The translations under genes and the position numbers were made by a program. A stretch of DNA of 64,000 bases from an uncultured Chloroflexia bacterium (GTDB lineage: Bacteria; Chloroflexota; Limnocylindria; Limnocylindrales; CSP1-4). Under the pieces are notes generated by a model. The model saw only the letters and a program-made list of their open reading frames with translations. It did no database searches and was not told where the DNA came from. Below are positions 3,588-43,762 of the stretch, one piece after another; position 1 is the first letter of the stretch, and every line of letters starts with the position of its first letter. The stretch is taken from contig CAVRAX010000001.1 of the NCBI GenBank assembly GCA_963719145.1, positions 1,017,729 through 1,081,728 on the forward strand, given 5' to 3'.

Positions 3588-3683
3588 AGGCGTGCCTCCT
3601 CGATCCAGCCCGCCCACGGGTCACGCGACGGGTCGCGGTATCGTCGCATCATCGTTGCCGTTCGTCGCGAGGGTCGTCCAGCC

Positions 3684-5015: not shown

Positions 5016-5155
5016 TCGCATCGCCGGAGCGCGGTGCGGCCCGGAACCGGATTCGGCGCTCGCGGTACCACTGCCGGCCCGGGGCCGGTACCGATGGGGC
5101 TGTCGCACGCGCGCGGATGGAGGGATCCTGCCTTGATATCGCTGGGGGGCCAACC

Positions 5156-5668
5156 ATGCAGCAGATCGAGGCCTTCACCGCCGGGGGAATTGCGAGCGGA
5201 GCGTGCGCGGAGGCATGGACGGTCCGCGACGGCCTCGAGGCGGAGCAGCCGATCGACGTCGACAAGGCGACCTGGTATCCGATCGCCGGTGGCGCCGCCG
5301 AGCGCCGCCGCCGGATCCACGTCGAGTCGGACGACCTGCTCGTCCTCTGCGCCGAGACGCAGGATCTCCCGATCCACGCCTCGTGGCATCCGGTCGAGCT
5401 GGACCTCGGGCCCTACCGCATCACCGGTGAGCTGCCGACGCTGCCCGGATTCGACCCGGGTCGCGCCCTCGCCCGGCCCGGCGGCCCGTTCATCCTGCTG
5501 CGTGACGTGGTCGTCGAGCTGGCCGCCCGGCCCGATGCGGGCCGGGTCGAGCGGCCGCACGCCTTCGTCAACCGGTATGCCGTCGATCGGGTGGCGGCGG
5601 GCATCGACCTCGGCTTCTTCTTCCCGGGCGCCAGGTTCCTGACCCCGGCCGGCGCTCCGCTCGCCTGA
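5156..5668 (+). CDS. Hypothetical protein
   Basis: Globular-looking ORF with coding-type composition (GPYRITGEL...AFVNR). Confidence 0.65.
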   Translation: MQQIEAFTAGGIASGACAEAWTVRDGLEAEQPIDVDKATWYPIAGGAAERRRRIHVESDDLLVLCAETQDLPIHASWHPVELDLGPYRITGELPTLPGFDPGRALARPGGPFILLRDVVVELAARPDAGRVERPHAFVNRYAVDRVAAGIDLGFFFPGARFLTPAGAPLA

Positions 5669-5802
5669 CGCCCGGCAGCCGTCCCTCGCCCGTCGAGTCA
5701 TCGATCCCTGACCTGACGCGCCTGTCTCCGACGCGGCTCCCCGCGCTCGCGAGGGCACGACTCCGCAGCGCGGCCTTGTCCGAGCCCGGGTCACGGCGTA
5801 TT

Positions 5803-5820
5803 TTCAACCCGATGGTTGAA
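5803..5820. promoter_or_regulatory. Palindromic operator TTCAACC-N4-GGTTGAA overlapping the ArsR start codon
   Basis: AT-rich inverted repeat over ATG 5812; same CAACC-N4-GGTTG core as 54351-54370. Confidence 0.75.
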
Positions 5821-6147
5821 TATTCGAGTCGTGGATTGGATGCGACCTACCGGGCCCTGGCCCATCCGGTTCGTCGGGGCATGGTCGAGCGCCTCCGCGG
5901 CGGGGACGCCGGCGTCACCGGCCTGGCGGCGGGCTTCGGGATCTCGCTCGCCGCGGCCTCGAAGCACATCAAGGTCCTCGAAGCCGCAGGCCTCGTCCGC
6001 CGGACAATCTCCGGTCGCGAGCACCACCTGGCGCTCGACGTCGAGCCGCTCTCGGAGGCGGCCGCCTGGATCGCGCGGTCGACGGGCTTCTGGGCGGGAC
6101 GGCTGGATGCGCTCGAGGCGGTCCTGCGGGATCGGGACTCGTCGTGA
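5812..6147 (+). CDS. ArsR/SmtB family regulator
   Basis: ALAHPVRR...SKHIKVLEAAGLV...GR wHTH; FW..RLDAL tail typical of SRPBCC-linked ArsR. Confidence 0.9.
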   Translation: MVEYSSRGLDATYRALAHPVRRGMVERLRGGDAGVTGLAAGFGISLAAASKHIKVLEAAGLVRRTISGREHHLALDVEPLSEAAAWIARSTGFWAGRLDALEAVLRDRDSS

Positions 6148-6617
6148 CCGAGCCCGGCGCGGACGGCGCGACGGTCGCCCGGATCGAGCGGCTCCTCCAG
6201 GCGCCGCCGGAGGTCGTCTATCGGGCCTGGACCGACCCGCTGATCCTGGGCCGCTGGATGTCGGCGTTCGGACGGGCCGAGGTCGCCGCGGACGTCCGCG
6301 TCGGTGGCCGGCTCCATGTCGCCATGGTCGACGACGACGCCCGGATCGAGCATGAAGGCGAGTTCCTCGTGCTCGATCCGCCGAGCCGTCTCTCGTTCAC
6401 CTGGCGCTCGCCGTACACGGGGCCGGAACCGAGCGTGGTGACCGTCGAGCTCACCCCGCGCGGGGCGGGGACCCGGTTGGTCCTCACCCATGAACGCCTG
6501 CCCGGCGAGGTCGTGGCGTCGCACCAGGGTGGCTGGGGTCGGATGGTCGATCGGCTGACAGACCTGCTCGGCGCTGGGGCCGGGCCGGCGGCGGCAGCGG
6601 AGGAGGTGGCCCGATGA
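6144..6617 (+). CDS. SRPBCC/AHSA1-like (START) domain protein
   Basis: APPEVVYRAWTDP...RLSFTW...HQGGW. Confidence 0.88.
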   Translation: MTEPGADGATVARIERLLQAPPEVVYRAWTDPLILGRWMSAFGRAEVAADVRVGGRLHVAMVDDDARIEHEGEFLVLDPPSRLSFTWRSPYTGPEPSVVTVELTPRGAGTRLVLTHERLPGEVVASHQGGWGRMVDRLTDLLGAGAGPAAAAEEVAR

Positions 6618-7069
6618 GCAGCGTCGACATCGAGACGGAGGTCGTCATCGATCGCCCGCGGGCCGAGGTCGCGGCGTTCGCCGCCGACCCCGACAACGTG
6701 ACCCGCTGGTACAGCAACATCAAGTCGGTCGAGTGGCGGACGCCACCGCCGGCGGCGGTCGGCTCGCGGATCGCCTTTGTGGCCCGCTTCCTCGGGCGGA
6801 CCCTGGCCTACGTCTACGAGGTCCGCGACGTCGTTCCCGGCGAGCGATTCGTGATGAGCACCGCCGACGGCCCCTTCGCCATGGAGACGACGTACACCTG
6901 GCGGGACGAGCCCGGCGGGGCAACGCGGATGACCCTCCGCAACCGCGGCGAACCGTCCGGGTTCTCGGCCGTCGCCGCGCCGCTCATGGCCGGCGCGATG
7001 CGCCGGGCGAACCGGCAGGACCTGGCTCGGCTGAAGACCCTCCTGGAGGCCTCCGCCCCCGGATCCTGA
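6614..7069 (+). CDS. SRPBCC (polyketide cyclase/dehydrase-like) protein
   Basis: IDRPRAEVAAFAADPDN..RWY...DLARLKTLLE; ATGA coupling. Confidence 0.85.
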   Translation: MSSVDIETEVVIDRPRAEVAAFAADPDNVTRWYSNIKSVEWRTPPPAAVGSRIAFVARFLGRTLAYVYEVRDVVPGERFVMSTADGPFAMETTYTWRDEPGGATRMTLRNRGEPSGFSAVAAPLMAGAMRRANRQDLARLKTLLEASAPGS

Positions 7070-7114
7070 GCTGGGGCGGGCGGCGCGCGGGAGGCGTCGC
7101 CGCCGGCGACGCGA

Positions 7115-8374
7115 TCAGCGCCGCGAGCCGCTCCGGGATCGCGACCTGCCCGGGCTTCGGTGAGCGTAGTGGTGGGTCCGCACCGGTCGGGCCGCGAGGG
7201 GCCCGCGGAGCGGCTGCGGCTCGGCGTTTCGATCCGGCACGAAGCCCTCCTCGACGGTCCACGGGATCGCCTGTTTCAGGAGGCGCTGGACGCCCCGGAG
7301 GAGGTCGGCCTCGTCGATCGAGACGAGGCTCACCGCGTCCCCGGTGGCGCCGGCCCGCCCGGTCCGGCCGATCCGGTGGATGTAGTCCATCGGCTCCCAC
7401 GGCAGCTCGAAGTTCACGACGTGGGGGAGATCCTCGATGTCGAGCCCGCGGGCGGCGACATCCGTCGCCACGAGGACCCGGATCTCGCCGCTCTTGAAGC
7501 TCTCGAGGGCGCGGGTCCGTTCCGGCTGGCTCCGATCGGAGTGGATCGCCACGGCCTCCAGGCCGCGCCGGTCCAGGTAGGTCGCGAGGCGTGATGCCCC
7601 GATCTTGGTCCTGGTGAAGACGAGGACCTGGCGCCAGTCGTGGCGGGCGACGAGGTGGGCCAGGAGCGCCTCCTTGCGGTCCCGGTCGACCGGGTAGACG
7701 AGCTGCCGTACGGTCTCGACGGCCGTGTTCCGTGGCGCGACCTCGACCGTTGCCGGGTTGCGGAGGATGGTCCCCGACAGGCGCCGGATGTCGTCCGAGA
7801 AGGTCGCCGAGAACATCAGGTTCTGGCGCCGGGGCGGGAGGAGGCCGATGATCCGCTGGATGTCCGGCAGGAAGCCCATGTCGAGCATCCGGTCCGCCTC
7901 GTCGAGGACGAGGATCTCGACCTGGCCCAGGTTGACGCCCTTCTGCCCGACGTGGTCGAGCAGTCGCCCCGGCGTCGCGACGAGGATCTCGATGCCGGCC
8001 CGAAGGGCCTTCGTCTGGGGCTCGATCGGGACCCCGCCGTAGACGACCGTCGAGCGGAGGGGGACCGTCCGGCCGTAGGTCCGGACGCTCTCGTCGACCT
8101 GCATCGCGAGCTCCCGCGTCGGGACGACGATGAGGACCCGGACCGGGTGGCGGGCCGGCGAGAAGGAGGTGTTCGCGTGGTGGCGGAGGCGATCCAGGAT
8201 CGGCAGGACGAACGCGGCCGTCTTGCCGGTCCCGGTCTGGGCGGCGGCGAGGACGTCGCGGCCGGTGAGGACGAGGGGGATCGCGACCGCCTGGACGGGC
8301 GTTGGCTCAACGTAGCCCTCGTCGGCCACCATGCCGACGAGATCAGCCGACAGGCCGAGCAATTCGAAGGTCAA
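7115..8374 (-). CDS. rhlE: DEAD-box RNA helicase, RhlE-like
   Basis: Q motif, [34 protein letters not shown]. Confidence 0.93.
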   Translation of the reverse strand: MTFELLGLSADLVGMVADEGYVEPTPVQAVAIPLVLTGRDVLAAAQTGTGKTAAFVLPILDRLRHHANTSFSPARHPVRVLIVVPTRELAMQVDESVRTYGRTVPLRSTVVYGGVPIEPQTKALRAGIEILVATPGRLLDHVGQKGVNLGQVEILVLDEADRMLDMGFLPDIQRIIGLLPPRRQNLMFSATFSDDIRRLSGTILRNPATVEVAPRNTAVETVRQLVYPVDRDRKEALLAHLVARHDWRQVLVFTRTKIGASRLATYLDRRGLEAVAIHSDRSQPERTRALESFKSGEIRVLVATDVAARGLDIEDLPHVVNFELPWEPMDYIHRIGRTGRAGATGDAVSLVSIDEADLLRGVQRLLKQAIPWTVEEGFVPDRNAEPQPLRGPLAARPVRTHHYAHRSPGRSRSRSGSRR

Positions 8375-27163: not shown

Positions 27164-28168
27164 ATGTCGGAATCGGCGGCCCCGCACGACGATCGCGACG
27201 CCTTCGGCCGGGCCCTGGAACAGCACCACCACGACCTCGTCCTCCTCTGCTACCGGTTCCTCGGCTCGGTCCACGACGCCGAGGAGGCCGTGCAGGAGAC
27301 GGCGATCCGGGCCTGGCGTGGGCGGGCGAGCTACCGCGGCGACGCCTCGATGCGGACCTGGCTTCACAGGATCGCGACCCGCGTCTGCCTGGATCTCCTG
27401 CGAAGCCGCCGCGGGCGCGTCCTGCCGGTCTCCGTGGCGGGCCCGGCCGACCCGACCCGCCCGGCGCCCCCGCGGCCGGCTGCCGAGGTCGCCTGGATCG
27501 AGCCGCTGCCCGATGCGTTCGTCGCCGGCGTCGAGCTCGACCCGGCGGCCTGGTACGACCTCCGGGAGAGTGTCTCGCTCGCCTTCATCGCCGCGCTCCA
27601 GGCCGTCCCGGCACGCCAGCGCGCCGTCCTCCTCCTGCGGGACGTCCTCGGCTGGTCGGCGCGCGAGACGGCCGAGGCCCTCGAGATGACGGAGCCGGCC
27701 GTGAACAGTGCCCTGCACCGGGCGAGGACCACCTTCCGGGCGACCCATCATCGATCGGGTCGTGACACCGTCCCGGCCGCGCCGCCATCCGACCCCGCAA
27801 TCCGGCGGCTGCTCCGGGCCTACGTCCGCGCCTGGGAGTCCGACGACGTTCGAGGCCTGCTCGCCACGATGCGGGCCGACGTCCGGCTGGCGATGCCCCC
27901 GTCGCCGTCGTGGTACGCCGGCGTGGCCGACGTCGAGACCCTCTTCCGGACCTGGGTCTTCGGTCCCCTCCGGCCGCCCGCCGGCTACCGGGCGGCCGCG
28001 ACGATCGCCAACGGCCAGCCGGCCGTCGTGTTCGGGAGCCGCGCCCCAGGGTCGCCGCCGAGCGGCGTCCAGGTCCTCGACCTCGAGGACGGGCAGGTGT
28101 CCGACCTCACGATCTTCGTCGAGCCGGCGATCGCGGCGGCCTTCGGGTGGCCCGAGCCGGCGGGCTAG
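27164..28168 (+). CDS. ECF sigma factor with C-terminal SnoaL-like extension (SigG-like)
   Basis: CYRFLGSVHDAEEAVQET, WLHRIATRVCLD, RQRAVLLLRDVLGW, ANGQPA. Confidence 0.9.
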   Translation: MSESAAPHDDRDAFGRALEQHHHDLVLLCYRFLGSVHDAEEAVQETAIRAWRGRASYRGDASMRTWLHRIATRVCLDLLRSRRGRVLPVSVAGPADPTRPAPPRPAAEVAWIEPLPDAFVAGVELDPAAWYDLRESVSLAFIAALQAVPARQRAVLLLRDVLGWSARETAEALEMTEPAVNSALHRARTTFRATHHRSGRDTVPAAPPSDPAIRRLLRAYVRAWESDDVRGLLATMRADVRLAMPPSPSWYAGVADVETLFRTWVFGPLRPPAGYRAAATIANGQPAVVFGSRAPGSPPSGVQVLDLEDGQVSDLTIFVEPAIAAAFGWPEPAG

Positions 28169-29025
28169 TTCGGCCGGCCGCCGCCGCCCATCTCGCGGCC
28201 CTGGTCTCGCAGGAAGCGCTCGATGTCGGCGATGAGGTCGTCGCCGGCCGGGAGGCGCGACTCGTCGGCCATGCCCTCGAGGCGCTCCACGTAGTTGCGG
28301 GTGTTCTCGTCGAGCGAGGCCGCCGTGTCGAGGCGCGTTCGGAGCGTCTGGGCTTCCTCGGCGAGGTCGCCCAGCGGGGGCTCGATGTCGAGGTGCTGGC
28401 CGAGGACCCGGAGCAGCTCCGCGGATGCCCCGGGGTACTCGCCCGACACGTAGTGCGGGATCTGGGCGAAGTAGCCGACGGCCGGGATGCCCGCCCGCGA
28501 CACGGCGACGTCGAGGACGGAGATGCAGGCGGCCGGGACGCGGAGGAGGCCCTCCGGACCGGGCCGGACGTCGGCGCGGAGGAGGCCCGGCCTCGACGAC
28601 GTCCCGAGGATCGGCACGGGCCGCGTGTGGGGCACGGCCGCCGGGATCGCACCGAGGCTGATCCACTGGGCGACCTCGAGCTTCTTGGCGATGTCGACGA
28701 CGTCGGCCGCGAATCGGCGCCACTTGAAGTCCGGCTCGGCCCCCGTCAGGACGAGGAGGTCGCGCTCGCCGATGCGCTGGCTCCGCATCTGGAGGGCCGG
28801 CCAGGTCAGGCGCTCGGGCTTGCCGTCCTGGATCTCGAGGGTCGGTCGCCGGGCCCGGAAGTCGAAGAGCTGGTCGCCGTCGAACTCGACCACGAGCCGG
28901 CCGCTGCCGGCGAGGAGCTTGGCGGCGGCCGTGGCCGCGCTGCCCGCGTCGACCCAACCATCGAGCGCCGTGACGACGACGGGCTCGACGAGGCCGTCGG
29001 GTTGGGTGAGCCGATAGAGCGCCAT
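28165..29025 (-). CDS. PAC2 family (proteasome assembly chaperone-like) protein
   Basis: GWVDAG, FDFRARRP, GAEPDFKW, VPHTRP, QIPHY. Confidence 0.88.
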   Translation of the reverse strand: MALYRLTQPDGLVEPVVVTALDGWVDAGSAATAAAKLLAGSGRLVVEFDGDQLFDFRARRPTLEIQDGKPERLTWPALQMRSQRIGERDLLVLTGAEPDFKWRRFAADVVDIAKKLEVAQWISLGAIPAAVPHTRPVPILGTSSRPGLLRADVRPGPEGLLRVPAACISVLDVAVSRAGIPAVGYFAQIPHYVSGEYPGASAELLRVLGQHLDIEPPLGDLAEEAQTLRTRLDTAASLDENTRNYVERLEGMADESRLPAGDDLIADIERFLRDQGREMGGGGRPN

Positions 29026-31067: not shown

Positions 31068-31832
31068 TCAGCCGGGATCGTCCGGGGCCACCTCGACGGC
31101 GAAGAGCTTCGGCCTCGTGACGACCGAATCCTGGGTCGCGACCGAGACGTCGACCTCGCCGGGCTTGTCGAGCTCGGGCACGACGGTCTGGATCTCAGCG
31201 TCGGAGGCACGCTGGAACGTGTCGGTGTCGACGCCGCCGAAGCGGACGGACTGGACCCCGCCGAAGTTGGTGCCTCGCAAGGTCACGTCGGTGCCGGCCG
31301 GCCCGTGCGTCGGAGAGACCTCGGTGATCGTGGGCGTCGCGCCCGCGTCCCGCGTCGTGAACAGGATGTCCACGACCTTCCGCAGCAGCGTCCTGAAGGC
31401 GTCCTCCCGGTAGCCGGTCGCAAACGCGATGACGTAGTAGAAGAGGTCCTTCGGCGCGTCACCGGTCGTCTCGTTGGGATTTGCCCCGATCGCCAGGACG
31501 CCGGACTGGAAGACCAGCACCGCGACGATCGCGACGAACCCCCCGACCAGGGGGCGCGCGACGTACCAGGTCCAGTAGCGGCGATCCCAGTCGTAGCGAT
31601 GGTCCTGGACCCCGACGAGCGAGGTCAGGACCCCGCCGACCGCCCCGAACCAGGGCACGGCGGTCGGAATGATCGAAAGACGGGGCGGGACCTCGTATCC
31701 GGCGACCTTCTGGCCGGTCGCGACCAGCCAGCCGACCCAGGCGATGACCACCAGCCAGGCCATGGTGTAGGCGAAGACGAGCTGCCGCTGGCGATCGCCC
31801 GCCGCCAACCCCGAGAGTCGACCACCCGCCAT
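31068..31832 (-). CDS. Membrane protein with C-terminal IPT/TIG domain
   Basis: GAVGG...WYVARPLVG...AFATGY TM module, then PTITEVSPTHGPAGTDVTLRGTNF. Confidence 0.8.
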   Translation of the reverse strand: MAGGRLSGLAAGDRQRQLVFAYTMAWLVVIAWVGWLVATGQKVAGYEVPPRLSIIPTAVPWFGAVGGVLTSLVGVQDHRYDWDRRYWTWYVARPLVGGFVAIVAVLVFQSGVLAIGANPNETTGDAPKDLFYYVIAFATGYREDAFRTLLRKVVDILFTTRDAGATPTITEVSPTHGPAGTDVTLRGTNFGGVQSVRFGGVDTDTFQRASDAEIQTVVPELDKPGEVDVSVATQDSVVTRPKLFAVEVAPDDPG

Positions 31833-31959
31833 CTGCGTGCCTCCCTCCCTCGGCCGGTACATCGGCACCGGCTGTCTCGGAGTCATGGCGCGCGCTCCAT
31901 GTCCGCCGCCCTCGCGGTGTTCGGGAGTGTACGCGCCCGATCCCGAGAGTCCAGTCTCG

Positions 31960-34491
31960 TCAGCCGCGCCGGATCTGGCTGACGATGGAGGGATCCGTGA
32001 TCCGCGCGTCCGCGGCGAGGAGGAACGCCTTGCTCAGGATGATGCTGAGGGTCGGGTCGTCGTCAAACGGCAGGAAGACCCGGTCGGCGGCGCCACCACG
32101 GGCGGGCACGATGCAGAGATACGTGTCCGACGGCTCCATGAGGATGTTGCCGCTGCCGAGGTGGATCCGGTACGTCCTGAGGTCGCCGCGGACGACGAGC
32201 CAGCGGTCCTCGAGGGCCAGCCGGTCGGCGATCGCCAGCCCCGGCAGCATCCGCTCGAGGGCGTCGCGCCGGACGATCGAGGTCGCCGTCAGGTCGCCGG
32301 TCCAGTAGCCCGCCCAGTAGCCGTCGAGCGGCGGGACCTCGCGGCGGCCGCCGTCCTGCCAGTTCCGATCCGCCCCGACCGAGGTCACCGACACGAACAG
32401 GTCGACGTCGCGCATCGCCTCGGAGAAGACGATCGCCGGCACGTCGGCGACTGGGACGACTTCCTCCGGCGCGCGCGGCGGGCCCGGTCGGAGGAACCGC
32501 ACCTGGTCCGTCGTGCAGTGCTGGACGGTCTCGGCGCCGAACTCCGCTTCGAGCTGGCCGTGCCAGAACTCGGCCCGGATCCCGTGGCTCGGGAAGTCGT
32601 GCTTCGCAACCCCGGTGTCGCCGCCGTCGAACGGGCCGAGGAAGTTCGAGCCCCAGCGCCGGGCGGTCATCAGGGCCCGGGCCTGCGGGTAGCGGAGGAT
32701 GTGGGCCGCGAAACGGTTCGAGTAGCGGCCGGTCTCGGCCTCGGCCGCGGTCGCGATGTAGACCTCGCGGAAGGCCTGCTTGAAGGGCTGCCGGATCCGG
32801 GCCTCGAGGAGGCGGGCCCGCCAGGCCGCGATGAGTGGCTCCGGGGCATGGATCGGATGCCACAGCCGGACCCGGGCGTCCTCGCCCGGCTCGAACGCGG
32901 TGCCGTCCGCGGTCTCGAGGCCCCCCGTGGCGGGGATCGCGGTCACCTCGCCACCGCTCTCGCCGTCGCCGTCGACGAACGTCCAGATGAGCCGCCGGCC
33001 GATCGTCCCGGTCAGCGGGTGGTCGAGGTAGCGGGCCCGCCAGTCGCTGATCGACCACTCGCGATCCTCGACGAACAGGTCCTCGATCCGGCCACGCTCG
33101 ATCCCCAGGCCCTTGCGGAGCTCCTTGAGCTCGTCCTTGACCCGCGTCACGGCGGCCTTGTTCGCCGCCGCGACGGCGGCCGGCGGCCGGGGGCTCACTC
33201 GACCGTCCGGGCCGCGCCAGGTGAGGGTGGCCTCGTCGCCCTCGACGGCCATGACGGCGACGTGGTCGCCGACCGGGATCTCGCGGCGGCCGTCGGGATC
33301 GAGGCCGTGGTCCGGCACGGCGAGCTCGAGCAGCTCCGAGGCGGTCAGACCCGCACGCTCGGCGGCCGCCTCGAGGGCCCGGGCAATCTGTTTCGAGACA
33401 TTCCGGTTCGTGACCTTCGCCTTGAGCCGGCCCAGGGCGGCGAAGGCCGCCGCATCGTCGAGCGAGCCGAGGGCGGCGGCCGCGGCATTGGCGAGACGCT
33501 CGTCGCGGGCCACGTTGTCGCCCCGGGCGCTCGTGCCGAAGTGGAGGCCGATCGTCGTCAGGGCGTCCACGGCCCAGGGCTCGGCGAGGATCGCCGACGC
33601 CCAGATCGCGCCGCGCAGGACGATGACGTTCTGGTCCCCGAGCGGCGGGGCCGCAACGACGAGATCCTCGCCACCGACGTGATAGACGGTCGGTGCTCGG
33701 AGTGTCTCCGACCCCGGCGCCTCGGCCAGCATCTGGTGGAGGAGGAGCCCGGCACCGTGGGCCCGGATGGCGTCAGCGGCTCGCTTCCGCCAGGCGCCGG
33801 TGGGGGTGACGGAGGTGACGAGCCCGAGCGCGGCCAGGAGTGGCGCCAGCTCGGCCTCCAGGCCGGAGGTCCTGGCGGCCCACACCTTGCCCCACGTGTC
33901 GGTCGCGTCGAAGAGGTTGGGGTCGATGCCCGCGCCGCCGGCCTCGAGCAGGGCGACGAATCGGCCCCTGTACTTCGCCGCCTGGCCCCGCGAGTACTGC
34001 TCGAATCTCCCGAGGCCGTCGATCACCACGGAGATCGGACCGGCGAGCTCGCCGAGGCCCCCCGCCTCGACCGCCCGCTCCGTCGCGGCCAGCGGCTGCC
34101 CCACGAGCGAGATGACGAGCCACTCCTCGTGATGCTCCATCTCTGACAGGGCGGTCGCGAGCATCTCGAGGAGCAGCTCGGCGTCGTCGCGGGCCCACGG
34201 CAGGCGGCGGCCGCCGAGCGACCGCAGGACGTTGATCGCGACGTAGGCCCGGGTCGGTCGATTCGCGGCCCCCCGCAGCCGTTGGATCAGCGAGGGCCGC
34301 TCGATGGCCCGCGCGAAGAGGGCGACGACCACCGAACAGAGGATGTCGGGTGGCAGGCGCCTGAGCTCGGCGACCTCGGGCCGCCTCGAGACGGTGTACG
34401 GGGTGGTCTCGGCGGCGTCGATGGCGAGGTCCACGCGCTCGCCGGCGCGGGCGAGATGTCCGGCGAGGACCGCGAGCGTCGAGTCGCTCAT
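31960..34491 (-). CDS. DUF4132-domain protein
   Basis: W...YLDHPL...RRLIW, RLWHP, W......IRQPFKQAFREVY, SNRFA, FSEAMRDVDLFVSV, RTYRIHLGSGNI, YLCIVP. Confidence 0.85.
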   Translation of the reverse strand: MSDSTLAVLAGHLARAGERVDLAIDAAETTPYTVSRRPEVAELRRLPPDILCSVVVALFARAIERPSLIQRLRGAANRPTRAYVAINVLRSLGGRRLPWARDDAELLLEMLATALSEMEHHEEWLVISLVGQPLAATERAVEAGGLGELAGPISVVIDGLGRFEQYSRGQAAKYRGRFVALLEAGGAGIDPNLFDATDTWGKVWAARTSGLEAELAPLLAALGLVTSVTPTGAWRKRAADAIRAHGAGLLLHQMLAEAPGSETLRAPTVYHVGGEDLVVAAPPLGDQNVIVLRGAIWASAILAEPWAVDALTTIGLHFGTSARGDNVARDERLANAAAAALGSLDDAAAFAALGRLKAKVTNRNVSKQIARALEAAAERAGLTASELLELAVPDHGLDPDGRREIPVGDHVAVMAVEGDEATLTWRGPDGRVSPRPPAAVAAANKAAVTRVKDELKELRKGLGIERGRIEDLFVEDREWSISDWRARYLDHPLTGTIGRRLIWTFVDGDGESGGEVTAIPATGGLETADGTAFEPGEDARVRLWHPIHAPEPLIAAWRARLLEARIRQPFKQAFREVYIATAAEAETGRYSNRFAAHILRYPQARALMTARRWGSNFLGPFDGGDTGVAKHDFPSHGIRAEFWHGQLEAEFGAETVQHCTTDQVRFLRPGPPRAPEEVVPVADVPAIVFSEAMRDVDLFVSVTSVGADRNWQDGGRREVPPLDGYWAGYWTGDLTATSIVRRDALERMLPGLAIADRLALEDRWLVVRGDLRTYRIHLGSGNILMEPSDTYLCIVPARGGAADRVFLPFDDDPTLSIILSKAFLLAADARITDPSIVSQIRRG

Positions 34492-34500
34492 CGGCCTCGG

Positions 34501-34893
34501 TCAGCCCCCGACGAGCGGCAGCAGCTTGACGAACGCCACGTCCATCGCGTCGAAGGTCGAGATCTCGGCGTCGAGCTCGGTCACCTGCTTGCGGTTGACG
34601 AGAACGAAGAAGCTGTTGTGCTGGAAGGCCGCGATCGCGACCCCCGCCTGGCGCTCCCAGTCGATCCGGTGCGGCGAGGCGAGCCGGTAACCATCAGCCG
34701 AGACCTCGGCGCCCTCGGGCTGGACGAACCCCCTGAACTCGGCCGTCGGGCGGAGGTTGTAACGGGCGACCTCCTCGCGGACGCGAAGGCGAATCAGGTC
34801 CCGCAGGGTGATGCGCTCGGGCACGTTCGGAAGCTCGATGTCGCCGGTCGGCCGGCCGGTGCTCGTTCGATCCTCGATCCGCAGCGTCGTCAT
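34501..34893 (-). CDS. Ubiquitin/MoaD-like protein with C-terminal di-glycine
   Basis: ITLRDLI...FFVLVN.KQV.ELD...DVAFVKLLPLVGG-stop; 9 bp upstream of the DUF4132 gene. Confidence 0.75.
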   Translation of the reverse strand: MTTLRIEDRTSTGRPTGDIELPNVPERITLRDLIRLRVREEVARYNLRPTAEFRGFVQPEGAEVSADGYRLASPHRIDWERQAGVAIAAFQHNSFFVLVNRKQVTELDAEISTFDAMDVAFVKLLPLVGG

Positions 34894-35149
34894 GGGTGAT
34901 CGCCCTCGTCTGCGTCGACTCTACCCATCAGCCCCAAGCGGCGCCAGGCAAGTGGGCGCGCGATGTCGTCGGAGCCGCAGGGACGTCTCGCAGGTCGAGA
35001 GCACCAGGGCCAGCGGCCCTCTTCGTCGAGCGCGTCGGCGCTCGGCCCAGGCGCGACTCGATTGGCGCGAGGCGGACATGGTGGGGCTCATGCGCCAGCT
35101 CGGCGCGAGCCCGGGTCCGGGCGGCCACGGCGACTGAAGGAGCGGCGGT

Positions 35150-36364
35150 CTACTCGAGGCCCAGTGTCTCGACCAGGAGATAGGTCGTCAGCGTTCCGAG
35201 GCCCTTGACGTCGACCTCGCGGGTCTCGTACTCGTGGGTCCCGCCGAGGAGCTCGCGGGTCGACGCCGCCAGGTGGATCCGCCCGGGCACGCCCGATGAC
35301 TCCATCCGCGATGCCGTGTTCACCGTGTCGCCCCACAGGTCGAACAGGATCCTGCGCTCGCCGATCACGCCGCCCACGACCGGCCCGCTGGCGATGCCGA
35401 CCCGGAGGCGCAGGTCGAGGTCGTTCGCCGATCGCCAGCCCTCGGCCGCGGCCAGGATCGCCTGGCTGAAGCGGACACCGATCTCGGCGTGATCCGGCCG
35501 GTCGACCGGCGCGCCGGCCGCCGCCATGTACGCGTCGCCGACGGTCTTGATCTTCTCGGCCCCGACTGCCGCGGCTGCCGCATCGAACCGGCTGAACAGG
35601 TCGTCCAGGAGCGCGACGACGCGGGCGGGGTCGGTCTTCTGCGCCCATGGCGTGAATCCGGCGATGTCGGCGAAGACGACCGTCGTCTCCGGGTAGAGCT
35701 CGGCGATCCGGGCCTCGCCGTGCTTCAACCGGCTCGCGATGGAGGCCGGGATGGCGTTCGTCAGCAGCTCCTCCGAGCGGGCCTCCGCGGCGCGCCGGCG
35801 GAGGTCGGTGTAGCGCAGCAGAAGGAAGGCGATCGTCAGTGGCGCCGCGACGTTCTGGGCATAGAAGGCGAGCTGGACCGCGTACGGTGGTGGATCGACG
35901 AGCCCGCGGACGAGCGGATCCGTCACCACGGCGAGGCCGAGTGTCGCCAGGAAGACGAAGAACCACGGGGTCGCCCGGCGCGGGCCGACGGCGAGGAGGG
36001 CGTAGGCCGGACCGACGAAGGCCCAGACGAGGCCGGCGCTGCTCGAGGTCACTCCGCCGCCGAGGATGTTGGCGGCGAGCACGAACGGCGGACCGAACAC
36101 CAGCAGGAGGGTGACGTAGCGCTCGAAGCGCCCGGTTCTGGCCAGCAGGACGAGGTTGGCGGCGCTGAAGGCCGAGAACGCGCCGGTGATGAGCCAGGCG
36201 AGTGGCTCGCTCGGGGCCTCGAGCGGGAGGCCGAGCGGGGCGACGATCGTCAGATAGCCGGCGATGACCCCGACGCGCTTCCGCAACCGGGTGCCGTCGT
36301 CGTCGGCCGGGTGGTCGGCGATCGAGACGAGGCGCGCGACGATCTGCCTGAGCCCGGCCGTCAC
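35150..36364 (-). CDS. Membrane-bound class III adenylate/guanylate cyclase
   Basis: About 6 TM; FADIAGFT, KIKTVGDAYM, FDLWGDTVNTASRMES. Confidence 0.92.
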   Translation of the reverse strand: MTAGLRQIVARLVSIADHPADDDGTRLRKRVGVIAGYLTIVAPLGLPLEAPSEPLAWLITGAFSAFSAANLVLLARTGRFERYVTLLLVFGPPFVLAANILGGGVTSSSAGLVWAFVGPAYALLAVGPRRATPWFFVFLATLGLAVVTDPLVRGLVDPPPYAVQLAFYAQNVAAPLTIAFLLLRYTDLRRRAAEARSEELLTNAIPASIASRLKHGEARIAELYPETTVVFADIAGFTPWAQKTDPARVVALLDDLFSRFDAAAAAVGAEKIKTVGDAYMAAAGAPVDRPDHAEIGVRFSQAILAAAEGWRSANDLDLRLRVGIASGPVVGGVIGERRILFDLWGDTVNTASRMESSGVPGRIHLAASTRELLGGTHEYETREVDVKGLGTLTTYLLVETLGLE

Positions 36365-39118: not shown

Positions 39119-39184
39119 CTTCCGCGGCGATTGGGCCTTGTATCCGCCTTGCGTCGGTCCGAGCGCGCGGCGAGGAGGGCGCCC

Positions 39185-41929
39185 ATGGCTATCGTGCGCG
39201 GGGGCCGCGGAGGGTCCGGTCTCGATCGAGCGCTCGAGCACGCCCAGCGTGCCGATCTCGACGACATCCTCGAGAGCGGTGAGCTCTACGACGGCGAGCG
39301 GGACGAGCTGCCCGAGCCGTACGGGCCGTACGACCCTGCGGCCCGCCCCTGGCAGATGCCCCTGGGACGGCGGAAGCCGCCGGCCTCGGGTGAGCCGCTG
39401 CGCGCGGCGCTTCGCGAGAGCCTCGGCCCCGCGGCGTCATCGTCCTCGGCGGCGTCATCGTCCTCGGCGGGACCAGCAGCCCAGGACGGCGAGCCGGAGC
39501 GGAGCTCGCTCCCCGGCATCCCGCCGCCCCCGCCGGTCGCCGACGGCAAGCGCGGTGGGGCACTCCGGCGAAGGCTGGGCCGCCTCCGCGGCAGCGGCGA
39601 GGCGGACACCGAGGCGGGTCGGGAGCGGGCAAGCTTCCAATTCCGTCCCGAGCTGACGGGCGTGGTCCTCATCCACGGCGTCGGCCGCCAGCTGGCCGGC
39701 GAGACCCTCCTGAACTGGACCCGACCGGTCATCACGCTCCTGGCCGACGCCGCCCGCTACGACGCCGGCCGACCGGAAGCCGAGCGCCGGCTCAAGCCGT
39801 TCGCTCAGGTGCCGCGGCCGGTGTCGGACCCGGTCTTCCGCTCCAGCATCGACTTCTCGGGCGAGACGTTCCCCGTCGTCCACCTCCGGATCCCCGGACG
39901 CACGGACGTGCCGGAGACGGACCCGCGCGCCGGCGAGCGGCGCTGGCTCGTGACGGAGGCGTGGTGGGCGGCCCAGGTCAAGCCGCCGACGCTCCAGGCG
40001 ATGATCAGCTGGCTCGGCGAGGAGGGCGGGCTCGGGCGAATCCTCCAGGGGATCGAGGACAACCTCCTCGGCACGGATGTCATCGCCCGAGCGGCCAGGG
40101 TGAGCCTCCAGGCCATCGTCTCGGTCGTGGTCGCCTTCGCGATGCTGGTCTTCGCCGTCCTGCTGGGCATCTCCAAGCTCCTCCCGATCGGGCCGCTGAA
40201 GGACTTCGTCGCCCTGCAGGCCGCCTCGAGCTGGCTGACGGGCAACTTCGGGGGCGCCCGGACGCTCCTGCGCGACCCGGCCCAGAGCGCGAACGTCCGG
40301 AGCCGGCTGGTGGCCGCGATCAAGGCCCTCCGCGCCTACGGCTGCCGGCACATCGTCGTCATCGGTCACAGCGGCGGCACGATGGTCAGCCTCCAGACGC
40401 TGACCGACCCCGCCTACCCCCGGCTGCGGGTCGACAAGCTCATCACCCACGGCGAGGCCCTCAACCTCGCCTGGCGCCTCGAGAACGAGGAGCAGGCCGC
40501 GGACACTCCGCGACTGCCGCCGGGCGACCGGATGGCGGGCGACATGGCCGCCGCCCAGCCGCGCCTCCTGTGGCGGGACTTCTGGGCGACGCACGATCCG
40601 GCCTCGAGCGGCCCACCGATCCTGCCCCAGGGCATGACCGATCCCGGCCCGCCGCGGTTCCTCGCCGAGCGGGTCTACAACCGGATGAACATCGGCGAGG
40701 ACCACAACGTCTTCTGGGACAACGACGAGCAGTTCCTCATCCCGCTCATCCGCGAGATCGACACCGTCACGACGGACCGCTCCAACTCGGCCTTCTACAG
40801 CGACGCCGCCGAGTCCGCCGTCCGGGCGCGGCGCAAGGAGCGGGTCTCCCTCCTCGCGCTCTGGCGCCGGGCAACCCTGGCCCTGCCGGTCATGGCGATC
40901 CTCGCCGCCCTGCTCGTCACCGCCGGAGGCGCGCTCGACGATGCAGCCCGGCTCGCCCTCGGCGCGTTCGAGTCGGTGCCGTTCCATAAGGAGCTCGTCG
41001 ACGCCGGGCGGTCGCTCGCCGGGCTGGGCGACGCGAAGATCGCGGCGGCGTTGCCGGACGCCTTGACCTGGCGGGCCTGGTACGAGCTCGGTGTCCTGGT
41101 CCTGCAGGTCGCGTTCCTGGTGACCCTCGCGATGGCCCTCCTGCCCGGGCGACCCGACCGGCTGTGGCTCGGTCGACCGCGGGCTCGGGCGGTCCTGGTG
41201 GCGTTCGACGCGGCCGTCGGACTCGGTGCCTTCGTCGTCATCGCCCTGGCCTGGTCCGTGGCCCCCGATCCGGACGGCTTGATCTCCCGCCTCGGTGGTC
41301 TCGTCACCGGCTCGGGGTTGCTCGGGCTCGTCGGGCTGGGCGTGGCGGTCCTGGCCGTCGGCTCGATCGGCCGGCGAGTCCGGGCCTCGATCGCCTTGCT
41401 CGAAGGCAGCGATGGCTACGGCGACCGGTTCCTGCGCGACGCCGCCATCGTCGCCTCGACGATCTTCCTGGCCGCGGTCCTGCTCGCCCTGATCGTCGCC
41501 CTCGTCGGGGTCGTCCTCGTCTTCGCCGGCAACGGTGCCGTCGCGGATGCCGACGAGGTTCGCCGGCTCGTCCTCGGCTCGATCGTCGTCCTCGTCGCCT
41601 TCCAGGCGATCCAGCGCCTCGGCATCTGGCGTTGGAACGCCTGGGACGTCCGCGAGCGGCGGGCTCTCCGGCGACGCCCGCTGGACTACCCGTTCCGCAA
41701 CTGGACCTGGTTCCTGGCTGCCGCGCTCGCGGCGATCGCGATCCTGGCTGCCCTGATCGTCGCCCTGACCGCAGCGACGGCCTGGGTCGCGACCCTCGGA
41801 GCCCTGATCCTTCTCGTCGTCGTGCTCAGCGTCGGCAAGGACGTGGTGGACAACGACGTCGACACGGGTGAGCCGGTTGCGGTCGTGCCGGACGTCGGCG
41901 GCCCGGCCGCCGGTGCGTCCGCGGGGTGA
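39185..41929 (+). CDS. Large membrane protein with lipase-like alpha/beta hydrolase domain
   Basis: LIHGVGRQ, VIGHSGG, ATHDP, EDHNVFW; about 8 C-terminal TM helices. Confidence 0.8.
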   Translation: MAIVRGGRGGSGLDRALEHAQRADLDDILESGELYDGERDELPEPYGPYDPAARPWQMPLGRRKPPASGEPLRAALRESLGPAASSSSAASSSSAGPAAQDGEPERSSLPGIPPPPPVADGKRGGALRRRLGRLRGSGEADTEAGRERASFQFRPELTGVVLIHGVGRQLAGETLLNWTRPVITLLADAARYDAGRPEAERRLKPFAQVPRPVSDPVFRSSIDFSGETFPVVHLRIPGRTDVPETDPRAGERRWLVTEAWWAAQVKPPTLQAMISWLGEEGGLGRILQGIEDNLLGTDVIARAARVSLQAIVSVVVAFAMLVFAVLLGISKLLPIGPLKDFVALQAASSWLTGNFGGARTLLRDPAQSANVRSRLVAAIKALRAYGCRHIVVIGHSGGTMVSLQTLTDPAYPRLRVDKLITHGEALNLAWRLENEEQAADTPRLPPGDRMAGDMAAAQPRLLWRDFWATHDPASSGPPILPQGMTDPGPPRFLAERVYNRMNIGEDHNVFWDNDEQFLIPLIREIDTVTTDRSNSAFYSDAAESAVRARRKERVSLLALWRRATLALPVMAILAALLVTAGGALDDAARLALGAFESVPFHKELVDAGRSLAGLGDAKIAAALPDALTWRAWYELGVLVLQVAFLVTLAMALLPGRPDRLWLGRPRARAVLVAFDAAVGLGAFVVIALAWSVAPDPDGLISRLGGLVTGSGLLGLVGLGVAVLAVGSIGRRVRASIALLEGSDGYGDRFLRDAAIVASTIFLAAVLLALIVALVGVVLVFAGNGAVADADEVRRLVLGSIVVLVAFQAIQRLGIWRWNAWDVRERRALRRRPLDYPFRNWTWFLAAALAAIAILAALIVALTAATAWVATLGALILLVVVLSVGKDVVDNDVDTGEPVAVVPDVGGPAAGASAG

Positions 41930-41994
41930 GCCGGGCCAGAGCAAGGGACCGGGCACCGGGCGGAAGATCGACCGGATCGCGCAGCGAGGAGGAC

Positions 41995-42492
41995 ATGCCC
42001 GTGAACAGCAACGCCGGTGCGACGCGGGCGGGCGACGCGTCGACGCAAGGCGCCCCATCCCCGGCGTCCGGCTGCCCGGACGACGCCCCCCGGATCGACT
42101 GGCTGATCTGCTGGTACGAGCGCGAGGCCAAGGTCAAGAACCGGGCGCACAAGGGCCTCCGCGTCGCCAGCATCGCGGCCGCCGCCGCCATCCCGGTCCT
42201 GGCGGCGGCGTCGGCTCAGCCCGTCTTCGGCGCGCTCCTCGGCGGAAGCGTCGTCGCCCTCGAGGCGATCCAGGAGCTCTTCCAGTTCCAGCGGAACTAC
42301 GTGACCTTTGCGACCGCGAAGGAGGCCCTGAAGCGGGAACGGGCGCTCTACGCGGCGGCCGCCGGCCCGTACCGCCGGTCGCGGACGAACGACCCCGACC
42401 GCCTCCTGGCGGAGCGCGTCGAGGCCCTGGTGGCCACCGAGACCGCCGGCTGGGCCGACCTCCAGCTCGGCGACAAGAAGTCGGGCGCATAG
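41995..42492 (+). CDS. SLATT-type (DUF4231-like) two-TM protein
   Basis: ICWYE..A...AAIPVL...FQFQRNY...EALKRE..LY....GPY...LAERVEAL...E...W. Confidence 0.82.
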   Translation: MPVNSNAGATRAGDASTQGAPSPASGCPDDAPRIDWLICWYEREAKVKNRAHKGLRVASIAAAAAIPVLAAASAQPVFGALLGGSVVALEAIQELFQFQRNYVTFATAKEALKRERALYAAAAGPYRRSRTNDPDRLLAERVEALVATETAGWADLQLGDKKSGA

Positions 42493-42967: not shown

Positions 42968-43762
42968 ATGGACATGGGCCGCCACTTCCGATCGATCGCC
43001 CTGGCTGTCGCGGCGCTCCTGGCGGCCTGCGGCGGCGCGCCGGCGACCGACGTCAGCGCGCCGACCGCGACGCCCCTCCAGGCGACCGCCCAGCCAACGC
43101 CGACCCCCGGGCGGAGCGAGGCGACTGCGACCCCGACACCCGAGCTCGGGATCGCCCCGATCGGGCCGACCGAGATCGCCGTCGTCCTCTCGATCACCGA
43201 CGGCGACACGATCCGGGTCGACCGCGGACTCGGCTCGGAGCGGCTGCGCTACATCGGGATGAACACGCCCGAGGTCGGCGACCCCGGTGCGGACCAGGCG
43301 ACCGCCGCCAACGCCCGCCTCGTCGAGGGCATGGGCGTCATCCTCGAGCGCGACGTGTCCGAGACCGACCGGTTCAGCCGGCTCCTCCGCTACGTCTGGA
43401 TCGATCGGGGCGCGGGCTGGACGTTCGTCAACCTCGAGCTCGTCCGACTCGGCTTCGCCGAGGCCGCCACGTACCCGCCCGACGTCCGCTACGTGGACCT
43501 GTTCGTCGCCGCCGAACGGCAAGCCCGCGCGGCCGGCGTCGGCCTGTGGGCCCCGACGCCCACGCCGCCGCCCGAGCCCACGTCAGCCGCCGAGCCGACG
43601 TCAGCCGCCGCGAACTGCCACCCCTCGTACGATCCCTGCCTGCCGATCGTCGCCGACCTGGACTGCCCCGACGTCCGGGCGATGGGCCTGGCGCCCGTCC
43701 ACGTCATCGGCCCCGACGACTACCACCTGGACGGCGACCACGATGGCATCGGCTGCGAGTAG
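42968..43762 (+). CDS. Thermonuclease (SNase) family lipoprotein with Cys-rich Ca-binding tail
   Basis: LAAC lipobox; DGDTI, RYIGMNTPE, DRFSRLLRYV; NCHPSY..CLP...DLDC...LDGDHDGIGCE. Confidence 0.9.
   Translation: MDMGRHFRSIALAVAALLAACGGAPATDVSAPTATPLQATAQPTPTPGRSEATATPTPELGIAPIGPTEIAVVLSITDGDTIRVDRGLGSERLRYIGMNTPEVGDPGADQATAANARLVEGMGVILERDVSETDRFSRLLRYVWIDRGAGWTFVNLELVRLGFAEAATYPPDVRYVDLFVAAERQARAAGVGLWAPTPTPPPEPTSAAEPTSAAANCHPSYDPCLPIVADLDCPDVRAMGLAPVHVIGPDDYHLDGDHDGIGCE

Follow-up and report, generated by a model that had tools for sequence, protein, structure and literature searches.

A Gly-Gly-terminated beta-grasp protein paired with a DUF4132/DUF7737 protein: a possible ubiquitin-like module in Chloroflexota and other bacteria

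The window analyzed here, a stretch of 64,000 nucleotides from the genome of an uncultured Chloroflexia bacterium (3.47 Mb in 7 contigs), carries two adjacent genes encoding a 130-residue ubiquitin-like protein (Ubl) and an 843-residue protein with the domains DUF4132 and DUF7737 (the partner). The Ubl ends in a free Gly-Gly and the partner has a conserved cysteine, Cys793, which is lost among relatives of the pair when the Gly-Gly is lost; this suggests an undescribed bacterial ubiquitin-like pathway.

The gene pair and its products

Both genes lie on the minus strand with the Ubl gene upstream, and the Ubl ends in VAFVKLLPLVGG (LPLVGG), after which the stop codon follows. An earlier note made from the DNA letters had described a -GG protein 9 bp upstream of a DUF4132 protein, with beta-grasp-like strings and an insert of about 45 residues in the former and two strings with possible catalytic residues in the latter. 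Both open reading frames (ORFs) are present as it described, as are ITLRDL (aa 28-33), FFVLVNRKQ (aa 95-103), and DVAFV (aa 118-122) in the Ubl and RIHLGSGN (aa 775-782) and YLCIVP (aa 791-796) in the partner, and the insert corresponds to aa 48-91 of the structural model. The GC content at third codon positions, 0.92 in the Ubl gene and 0.94 in the partner gene, is typical of the real genes of this window (overall GC 73%). The spacer of 9 nt (ccGAGGccg) contains a Shine-Dalgarno-like GAGG, which is likely the ribosome-binding site of the partner gene, and the two genes probably constitute one operon. A promoter and terminator scan of 31700-35300 gave nothing useful. The features of the pair, with the evidence in parentheses, are as follows:

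34501..34893, minus strand: Ubl gene, encoding a 130-aa predicted beta-grasp protein with a free C-terminal Gly-Gly (ORF, AlphaFold2 (AF2) model, 501 homologues)
34504..34509, minus strand: codons of Gly129-Gly130, with the stop codon directly after (sequence, Gly-Gly conservation)
34492..34500, minus strand: spacer with GAGG (sequence, tight spacing or overlap at related loci)
31960..34491, minus strand: partner gene, 843 aa, with HEAT/ARM repeats, DUF4132, an alpha+beta domain, and DUF7737 (ORF, Pfam, AF2)
33328..34455, minus strand: N-terminal alpha-helical HEAT/ARM-like repeats, aa 13-388 (fold searches)
32653..33204, minus strand: DUF4132, aa 430-613 (Pfam PF13569, E = 7.5e-42)
32380..32730, minus strand: alpha+beta segment, aa 588-704, with YugN-like/TBP-like fold resemblance and an invariant R694-D695-x-D697
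31972..32274, minus strand: DUF7737, aa 740-840 (Pfam PF24879, E = 6.8e-40)
32104..32169, minus strand: RIHLGSGN...YLCIVP with His777 and Cys793, candidate active-site pair (conservation, co-variation)

Structure prediction confidently assigns the small protein to the beta-grasp fold that the earlier note had proposed, with MoaD, SAMP1, CysO, and ubiquitin as its nearest structures. The AF2 model (37-sequence alignment; predicted local distance difference test (pLDDT) 87.1, predicted template modeling score (pTM) 0.80) consists of strands 2-10 and 15-24, a helix at 30-47, an inserted beta-hairpin at 63-70, a second helix at 79-91, four short strands, and a disordered tail at 127-130; the extra residues thus form a loop, the hairpin, and the second helix. 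Foldseek against the PDB gave nothing at E <1e-3, its rows being mostly ubiquitin, NEDD8, SUMO, ISG15, UBX, and MoaD. A VIA structure search, which is independent of Foldseek, listed 5mpo_B (MOCS2A/MoaD; 7.3, with further values of 3.5 and 80), 4hro (SAMP1; 6.5), 1vjk (MoaD; 6.4), 6jc0 (MoaD; 6.3), and 4n6e_B (CysO; 5.5) as neighbors.

No family match to the Ubl was found in Pfam (E up to 1), NCBIfam, or PADLOC. A search of its own genome with PF02597 (ThiS/MoaD) found three other loci and not the Ubl locus, and hhalign comparison with 30 local ThiS/MoaD/CysO sequences gave a probability of 1.2%. The Ubl is thus not placed in the ThiS/MoaD family by Pfam or profile comparison and is, by sequence, a family of its own. 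We found 501 homologues, and a complete HMMER search of 1.84 billion cluster representatives (50% identity) retrieved 1910 proteins with E-values up to 1e-3, of which 883 had E-values no higher than 1e-10. In the ESM Atlas, the only matches to the Ubl were clusters without a name (“hypothetical protein”), and PDB sequence searches with the Ubl profile, the partner, the partner alignment, and the DUF7737 alignment gave nothing significant.

The partner matches DUF4132 with 143.7 bits and DUF7737 with 135.7 bits (cut-off 27), and its AF2 model has a pLDDT of 88.3 and a pTM of 0.81 (40-sequence alignment). DUF7737 is modeled as a helix (736-751 by DSSP), five short strands in the 758-792 region, a disordered loop, and two helices (813-826 and 834-842). 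His777 and Cys793 are spaced by 16 residues, on neighboring strands of the model, and are present in 39/39 and 38/39 aligned partner C-termini, respectively. In the model, the order of these elements recalls the layout of ubiquitin-conjugating (UBC/E2) enzymes, which is suggestive only. Further invariant polar residues are RQPFKQAFRE (567-576), E584, H597, R694-D695-x-D697, and S820-K821.

Whole-partner searches with Foldseek against the PDB and with VIA were filled by HEAT/ARM repeats, masking the C-terminal domains, and whole-partner searches including the viral BFVD were likewise filled by such repeats or gave nothing at E <1e-3. The ESM Atlas, searched with aa 395-843 and with DUF families excluded, contained no usable match. 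Pfam recognized no E2 family on either protein and no peptidase family on the partner, and neither Pfam nor the PDB sequence search revealed a recognizable sulfurtransferase, radical-SAM, or pyridoxal phosphate (PLP) domain in it. The sole PADLOC match of the partner was BrxHII (E = 0.02), and a ParE_toxin match (E = 0.017) was dismissed as below the cut-off. Short DUF7737 proteins proved to be fragments with almost only DUF4132 and/or DUF7737 (one also with PF08014), mostly on short contigs. Co-folding of the Ubl with the full 843-aa partner, using both alignments, scored 0.01 against a mark of 0.32 and speaks neither for nor against binding.

Linkage, distribution, and co-variation

Gly129 and Gly130 are invariant in alignment A1, and 120/120 close homologues, among the matches listed of the 501, end in GG. 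The same exact end was found in 136 of the best 150 of the 1910 cluster representatives; 13 of the 14 others are truncated or frameshifted and stop before the profile end and one ends in AG, leaving 136/137 among full-length representatives. At 80 genome loci (one genome per species), 78 Ubl ORFs end in GG, the two exceptions being an ORF ending in AGS and one with a read-through. The PL[VAI]GG end persists in divergent Chloroflexota relatives (E 1e-8 to 1e-39), and members from Bacteroidota, Deinococcus, and Novosphingobium still end in GG at 30-37% identity or when detected by profile only. Only two relatives carry one or two residues past the Gly-Gly (GGA and GGSA).

No genuine fusion of the Ubl was counted among the homologues. 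Two candidates were rejected as such. In P0122, the only longer match (621 aa), the Ubl stands at the C-terminus after a low-complexity stretch and an internal Met, so that the ORF looks over-extended. In P0164 (969 aa), DUF7737 is replaced by Arg/Pro/Gly-rich sequence that seems out of frame, and a frameshift looks likely. A second Ubl copy of a Chloroflexota genome (L092, G030:C28, 5048-5446) contains one in-frame TAG; its partner is intact with the Cys kept.

At 75 of the 80 loci, the Ubl gene has a DUF4132 gene as its neighbor on the same strand, 36 times in the order Ubl-to-DUF4132 as in the window and 39 times in the reverse order. Of the latter, 38 share an identical junction, with the Ubl start 6 nt beyond the final aligned residue of DUF4132, and those read in sequence have a 1-nt stop/start overlap. 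Arrays often hold two to three tandem DUF4132 paralogues. When all ORFs of the loci were clustered, no other common gene family was found beyond lineage-specific synteny (DAGK, PadR, aldo-keto reductase, esterase, and similar genes). These counts bear out the conserved Gly-Gly and the gene linkage that the earlier note had presupposed.

The pair recurs in Chloroflexota, Actinomycetota, Bacteroidota, Deinococcota, and Alphaproteobacteria, covering at least five phyla. It has unrelated flanks on Bacteroidota plasmids (Chondrinema and Fulvitalea, Ubl ending in LVGG), in Novosphingobium (Ubl ending in PLKGG, 4-nt overlap), and on chromosome II of Deinococcus radiodurans. Among 301 Actinomycetota genomes, a Pfam search for DUF7737 found 8 further full partners. 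Six of these have an adjacent GG-ending Ubl; the other two come from a single genome, in which they sit on short contigs and a partial Ubl is encoded at another place. When 401 Chloroflexota genomes were sampled evenly, 16 contained the Ubl, 13 contained DUF4132, and 11 contained both, and within the window's own family the Ubl is present in only 2/23 genomes (the window's genome excluded), which makes the distribution patchy. LexA-box, RecA-NDp, and RDRM-like (radiation/desiccation response motif) patterns were scanned for upstream of the Ubl at 33 loci: none occurred in the window, one locus had a full RecA-NDp-like match, and two others had partial or half-site matches.

The Ubl tracks the DUF7737 domain rather than DUF4132 as such. 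Five complete actinomycete genomes contain 21 DUF4132 matches (20 genes), 11 DUF7737 matches, and 6 Ubl genes, all six of which adjoin DUF4132 genes bearing DUF7737; 9 of the 11 DUF7737 genes are clustered with a Ubl, and a Ubl stands beside 0/9 of the DUF4132-only genes.

Within DUF7737, the Cys is kept in partners from loci with a family Ubl: 38 in alignment A3 (where a few Ubl genes are not plainly GG-terminal, namely L093 with GGA, L017 with a read-through, and the TAG-interrupted L092), 4 from other phyla, and 6 from the HMM-based Actinomycetota sample. It is replaced in 4/4 cases without a Gly-Gly protein. Genome G151 (94% complete) has no Ubl at E up to 0.01 and its partner has Phe for Cys, with HLFIRL for YLCIVP; the partner on an Acetobacter plasmid, without an adjacent family Ubl, has Phe as well. 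In B. finegoldii, a family member ending in SGRLW accompanies a partner with Ala, and on Chondrinema plasmid 5 a family member ending in AGSIW accompanies a partner with Ser. D. radiodurans, whose partner belongs to the same long subfamily as the latter two, keeps both Gly-Gly and Cys. Where Cys-bearing partners lack an adjacent Ubl, their strains or genomes encode a GG-ending Ubl elsewhere. This co-variation supports a functional coupling of the tail and the large protein. As for the possible catalytic His and Cys of the earlier note, both are conserved and the Cys co-varies with the Gly-Gly, and they stand as a candidate active-site pair.

Some DUF7737 paralogues lack the Cys (L015, L020, L023-L026, L031, L034, L045, L053, L055, L069, and L077). 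Each lies upstream in a tandem array whose Ubl-adjacent copy keeps it. The Ser-Lys is also replaced in these paralogues (by Gly-Thr/Leu) and kept in the Ubl-adjacent copy, and they look like pseudo-enzyme partners.

An enzyme cutting Gly-Gly-linked bonds would likewise co-vary with the Gly-Gly, and DUF7737 might be a Cys/His peptidase that deconjugates or processes the Ubl, with conjugation left to host enzymes encoded elsewhere. The spacing of His777 and Cys793 on adjacent strands would suit such an enzyme, and the GGA and GGSA extensions of two relatives would need trimming. However, processing would be superfluous for the nearly all members that are already made ending in Gly-Gly, and the partner matched no peptidase family. 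To our knowledge, the Bil, Bub, and CBASS (cyclic-oligonucleotide-based antiphage signaling system) operons all encode an activating enzyme (E1) and an E2, and a mobile unit of modifier and remover without a ligase would be unprecedented among them. We regard a peptidase as very doubtful.

By profile comparison, DRA0165 of D. radiodurans is a true member of the Ubl family and DRA0166 is its partner. Aligned by hhalign through the terminal Gly-Gly, DRA0165 matched the family with a probability of 95.2% (E = 2.6e-8), and DRA0166 (1626 aa) combines DUF5724, DUF4132, and DUF7737 with the motif FLCIVP. This partner differs from that of the window in its N-terminal DUF5724, which takes the place of a short HEAT region. 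DUF5724 is thus fused to the partner in Deinococcus, while the Fulvitalea plasmid (L110, 938-6052) has it as a protein of its own (1704 aa), whose gene runs divergently from the Ubl-DUF4132 pair. DRA0165-DRA0166 (L111, 452-7396) directly follow two YeeE/YedE genes and trxC, with a thiS-thiG thiamine operon some 5 kb downstream of them.

According to one study, the drA0165-drA0166 operon is strongly upregulated on DdrO depletion, and V5-tagged DRA0166 increases after mitomycin C in the wild type and not in an irrE mutant (10.1101/2021.07.07.451423, the same work as PMC8533742). A peptidomics study lists DR_A0165 as “SEP068184” and reports that gamma rays and H2O2 induce it, that its deletion raises resistance to H2O2, and that its overexpression causes sensitivity (PMC9650054). 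It is treated there as a small peptide restricted to Deinococcus, and the sections consulted make no mention of its fold, its Gly-Gly, or its link to DUF4132 (PMC9650054). The restriction to Deinococcus is contradicted by our homologue searches.

Possible chemistry and its alternatives

As the earlier note had remarked, no E1, E2, or JAB is encoded near the pair: Pfam scans found none among 15 neighboring ORFs, and the only ThiF or Prok-JAB matches of the genome lie outside the window (C1:481-484 kb, contig C2, and one weak sub-cut-off ThiF on C3). On C1, a CysO-type cluster (480.6-483.7 kb; L106:6635-9681) comprises a Rhodanese+ThiF E1 (L106:6635-7867), a ThiS-family protein of 90 aa ending in AMAGG, a PLP enzyme, and a Prok-JAB. 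The E1 is not linked to the Ubl-DUF4132 pair; if an E1 acts in trans, this cluster most likely supplies it. Because DUF4132 is widespread without the Ubl, an E1 in trans would be likelier than a dedicated adenylating role of DUF4132.

Contig C2 carries a type II CBASS operon (L105:1776-8362), which lies in DNA of atypical composition and is unlinked to the pair. It consists of a NERD-domain gene, a SAVED-domain effector (3418-4926), a SMODS CD-NTase (4724-6031), a Cap2-like ThiF protein (5799-7811), and a Cap3-like JAB (7808-8362).

Our preferred reading, to which we give a probability of about 0.5, is of a self-contained, widely distributed ubiquitin-like module in which the free Gly-Gly carboxylate of the flexible Ubl tail and Cys793 of DUF7737 act together covalently, as a thioester or acyl-persulfide. 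Three findings argue for such a step: the Gly-Gly is strictly terminal, the Ubl is tied to DUF7737 alone, and Gly-Gly and Cys are lost together. In the scheme that we infer, the carboxylate would be adenylated first, most parsimoniously by a housekeeping MoeB/MoeZ-type E1 in trans and less likely by the large protein itself. The activated tail would then be held covalently on Cys793 or processed by it, as a thioester or acyl-persulfide, and would finally be transferred to proteins recruited by the HEAT/DUF4132 scaffold, in a role like that of an E2 or ligase (E3), or be passed on as sulfur.

A bolder version, which we think improbable, would make the DUF4132/DUF7737 protein a novel type of single-polypeptide Ubl enzyme unrelated to E1, E2, HECT, or RBR proteins. 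It would load the Gly-Gly tail onto Cys793 and pass the Ubl to targets held by the scaffold, and its conserved RDxD, K/R, and E residues may also serve it to activate the tail. On this view, two genes would suffice for a minimal ubiquitination-like system, used in the responses to DNA damage and oxidative stress in at least five phyla.

The layout of the pair is also that of a textbook sulfur carrier. In moaDE and thiSG, the gene of the Ubl is translationally coupled to that of the enzyme using it and the E1 is encoded elsewhere. By analogy with MoaD-MoaE, ThiS-ThiG, and CysO-CysM, MoeZ/MoeB would thiocarboxylate the Ubl and Cys793 would form an acyl-disulfide or persulfide, with no conjugation. 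The Rhodanese+ThiF E1 of the genome, the YeeE/YedE and trxC genes before the D. radiodurans operon, and the reported binding of Trx1 by DR_A0165 (PMC9650054) are consistent with this. Nevertheless, the Ubl is not detectably ThiS/MoaD (no Pfam match, 1.2% by hhalign), the partner has no recognizable sulfurtransferase, radical-SAM, or PLP domain, sulfur-related neighbors occur in Deinococcus only, and no conserved metabolic genes surround the pair. A sulfur-carrier pair seems unlikely, while fitting the evidence about as well as the conjugation/defense reading of the earlier note.

Several observations weigh against a covalent module. An adenylating enzyme is linked to the pair in 0/103 related loci (1.19 Mb in total), in which tblastn with the genome's MoeZ-type E1, Cap2, both JAB proteins, and the CysO-like protein found no homologue of any of them, and the wide occurrence of DUF4132 without the Ubl makes it unlikely to be a dedicated E1. 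Searches of Pfam at E up to 10 and with profiles against the PDB gave DUF7737 no fold match. Its Cys is not universal, since 13 of the 116 DUF7737 domains at the 80 loci are the Cys-less paralogues (RLRVEP type), and the four replacements may represent only three independent losses, given the similarity of the two Bacteroidota partners (1686 and 1687 aa). The Ubl occurs without a full DUF4132 gene at 5 of the 80 loci, among them a contig of 596 bp and a locus with a fragment. In D. radiodurans, the peptidomics study found no RDRM motif upstream of DR_A0165, pulled down the same 157 proteins with N- and C-terminally tagged DR_A0165, and observed binding of Trx1 by the purified protein (PMC9650054); the pulldown and the Trx1 binding fit a non-covalent interaction.

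The Ubl may be a regulatory or adaptor subunit that simply binds the large protein, its tail filling a pocket, and that modulates a stress or sensor function based on DUF4132 without carboxylate chemistry. B. finegoldii and Chondrinema plasmid 5 keep the small protein beside a partner although Gly-Gly and Cys are both gone. Because these variants retain the gene pairing, the pair has a function needing neither, and they suggest that binding persists. That a C-terminally tagged protein still pulls down partners (PMC9650054) and that E1, E2, and deubiquitinase genes are absent in cis at the 103 loci can be read in the same way. Yet an exact Gly-Gly end in 136/137 full-length representatives from at least five phyla, with only two relatives extending past it, is hard to explain by binding alone, as is the joint loss of Cys and Gly-Gly. 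We consider a purely non-covalent role unlikely.

The neighboring ORFs of the window are unrelated to the pair and comprise, by Pfam, a class III cyclase, an AlkZ-like glycosylase, a TIG-domain protein, a PAC2 protein, and a DEAD helicase. The class III adenylate/guanylate cyclase (35150-36364, minus strand) is encoded on the strand of the Ubl gene, 256 nt upstream of it; it has a generic PADLOC match to PycC (1.7e-13) and is not kept beside the pair at other loci. The PAC2 (proteasome assembly chaperone 2 family) protein (28165-29025, minus strand) is about 3 kb from the pair and has no link to it at other loci. On the plus strand, a 932-aa ORF without a Pfam family overlaps a DUF4231 protein (41926-42492) by 4 nt, the two spanning 39131-42492, and close to them an SNase+Excalibur protein (42968-43762, plus strand) matches the PADLOC candidate C3a212 (8e-26). 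These three genes may represent a separate conflict-type module.

A role of the pair in antiphage defense by Ubl conjugation, in the manner of Bil or Bub, has been considered as well. The patchy distribution (2/23 genomes of the family, 16/401 of the phylum) and carriage on plasmids would be expected of such a system, and these two points are the extent of the positive evidence; the Deinococcus member is also inducible by DNA damage, as some immune operons reportedly are (PMC13373217). However, neither protein has a PADLOC model match beyond the BrxHII match at E 0.02, the neighbors in the window do not constitute a defense island (PADLOC finds only generic helicase and cyclase matches and the SNase candidate), and the flanks differ per lineage and are housekeeping-like. 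We consider defense rather improbable. Of the conjugation/defense module proposed in the earlier note, a functional coupling of tail and large protein is supported, whereas no PADLOC match, defense island, or adenylating activity was found to support the remainder.

Comparison with known ubiquitin-like systems

The fold and the Gly-Gly are of an already known kind. As far as the literature searches reach, what is new is the Ubl family, its exclusive pairing with DUF4132/DUF7737 proteins without E1, E2, or deubiquitinase genes, and the co-variation of Gly-Gly and Cys. The Ubl pairing is undescribed in the DUF4132 literature that we found, no search having been aimed at DUF7737, PF13569, or PF24879 alone.

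Known bacterial ubiquitin-like pathways fall into two groups, sulfur carriers with a ThiF/MoeB E1 and full operons of E1, E2, and deubiquitinase (Bil, Bub, and CBASS). Beside them stands a large unannotated family of 1910 clusters at 50% identity that keeps the hallmark of conjugation in at least five phyla and has one DUF partner only. If the Cys-Gly chemistry is true, it would provide the first biochemical handle on DUF4132/DUF7737 proteins, the published stress “small peptide” of Deinococcus would be reinterpreted as a Ubl, and a minimal or non-canonical way of activating and transferring a Ubl may emerge.

In E. coli, DUF4132 proteins are represented by YehI/MolR (yehF-yehH-yehI-yehK-yehLMPQ locus). 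DUF4132 is common to YehI and our partner, but YehI is without DUF7737, and proteins of this type associate with WGR, MoxR, vWA, and SWIM genes. YehK, a small protein encoded downstream of YehI, was considered as an equivalent small partner and rejected as unrelated (hhalign probability 0.3%, no Gly-Gly end).

Bil, Bub, and the Cap2/Cap3 proteins of type II CBASS resemble the pair in a bacterial Ubl with a C-terminal glycine and in mobile or patchy loci (10.1101/2023.09.04.556158, PMC11601596, PMC11601603, PMC10557695). They differ in that E1, E2, and JAB or another deubiquitinase are reported to be encoded beside their Ubl, of which none was found at the 103 loci here.

The dual-function Ubls Urm1, SAMP, and TtuB are reported to be conjugated independently of E2 and E3 after thiocarboxylation (PMC9574740). 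They share with the pair a Gly-Gly Ubl and a link to oxidative stress, the Deinococcus member responding to H2O2, and they need only a MoeB/Uba4-type E1, while our genome has the Rhodanese+ThiF E1. In contrast to the pair, they have no dedicated large Cys-bearing partner, and no homology of theirs to its Ubl was found beyond the common fold.

The sulfur carriers MoaD, ThiS, and CysO with MoaE, ThiG, and CysM are alike in a small beta-grasp protein with a second helix and a flexible Gly-Gly tail, in a gene tightly coupled to that of a larger partner, and in an E1 encoded elsewhere, and MoaD ties for the top structural neighbor. Unlike these carriers, the Ubl of the pair lies outside their sequence family and has about 45 extra residues, and its HEAT/DUF4132/DUF7737 partner, which has no known sulfur-transfer domain, stands in no biosynthetic context.

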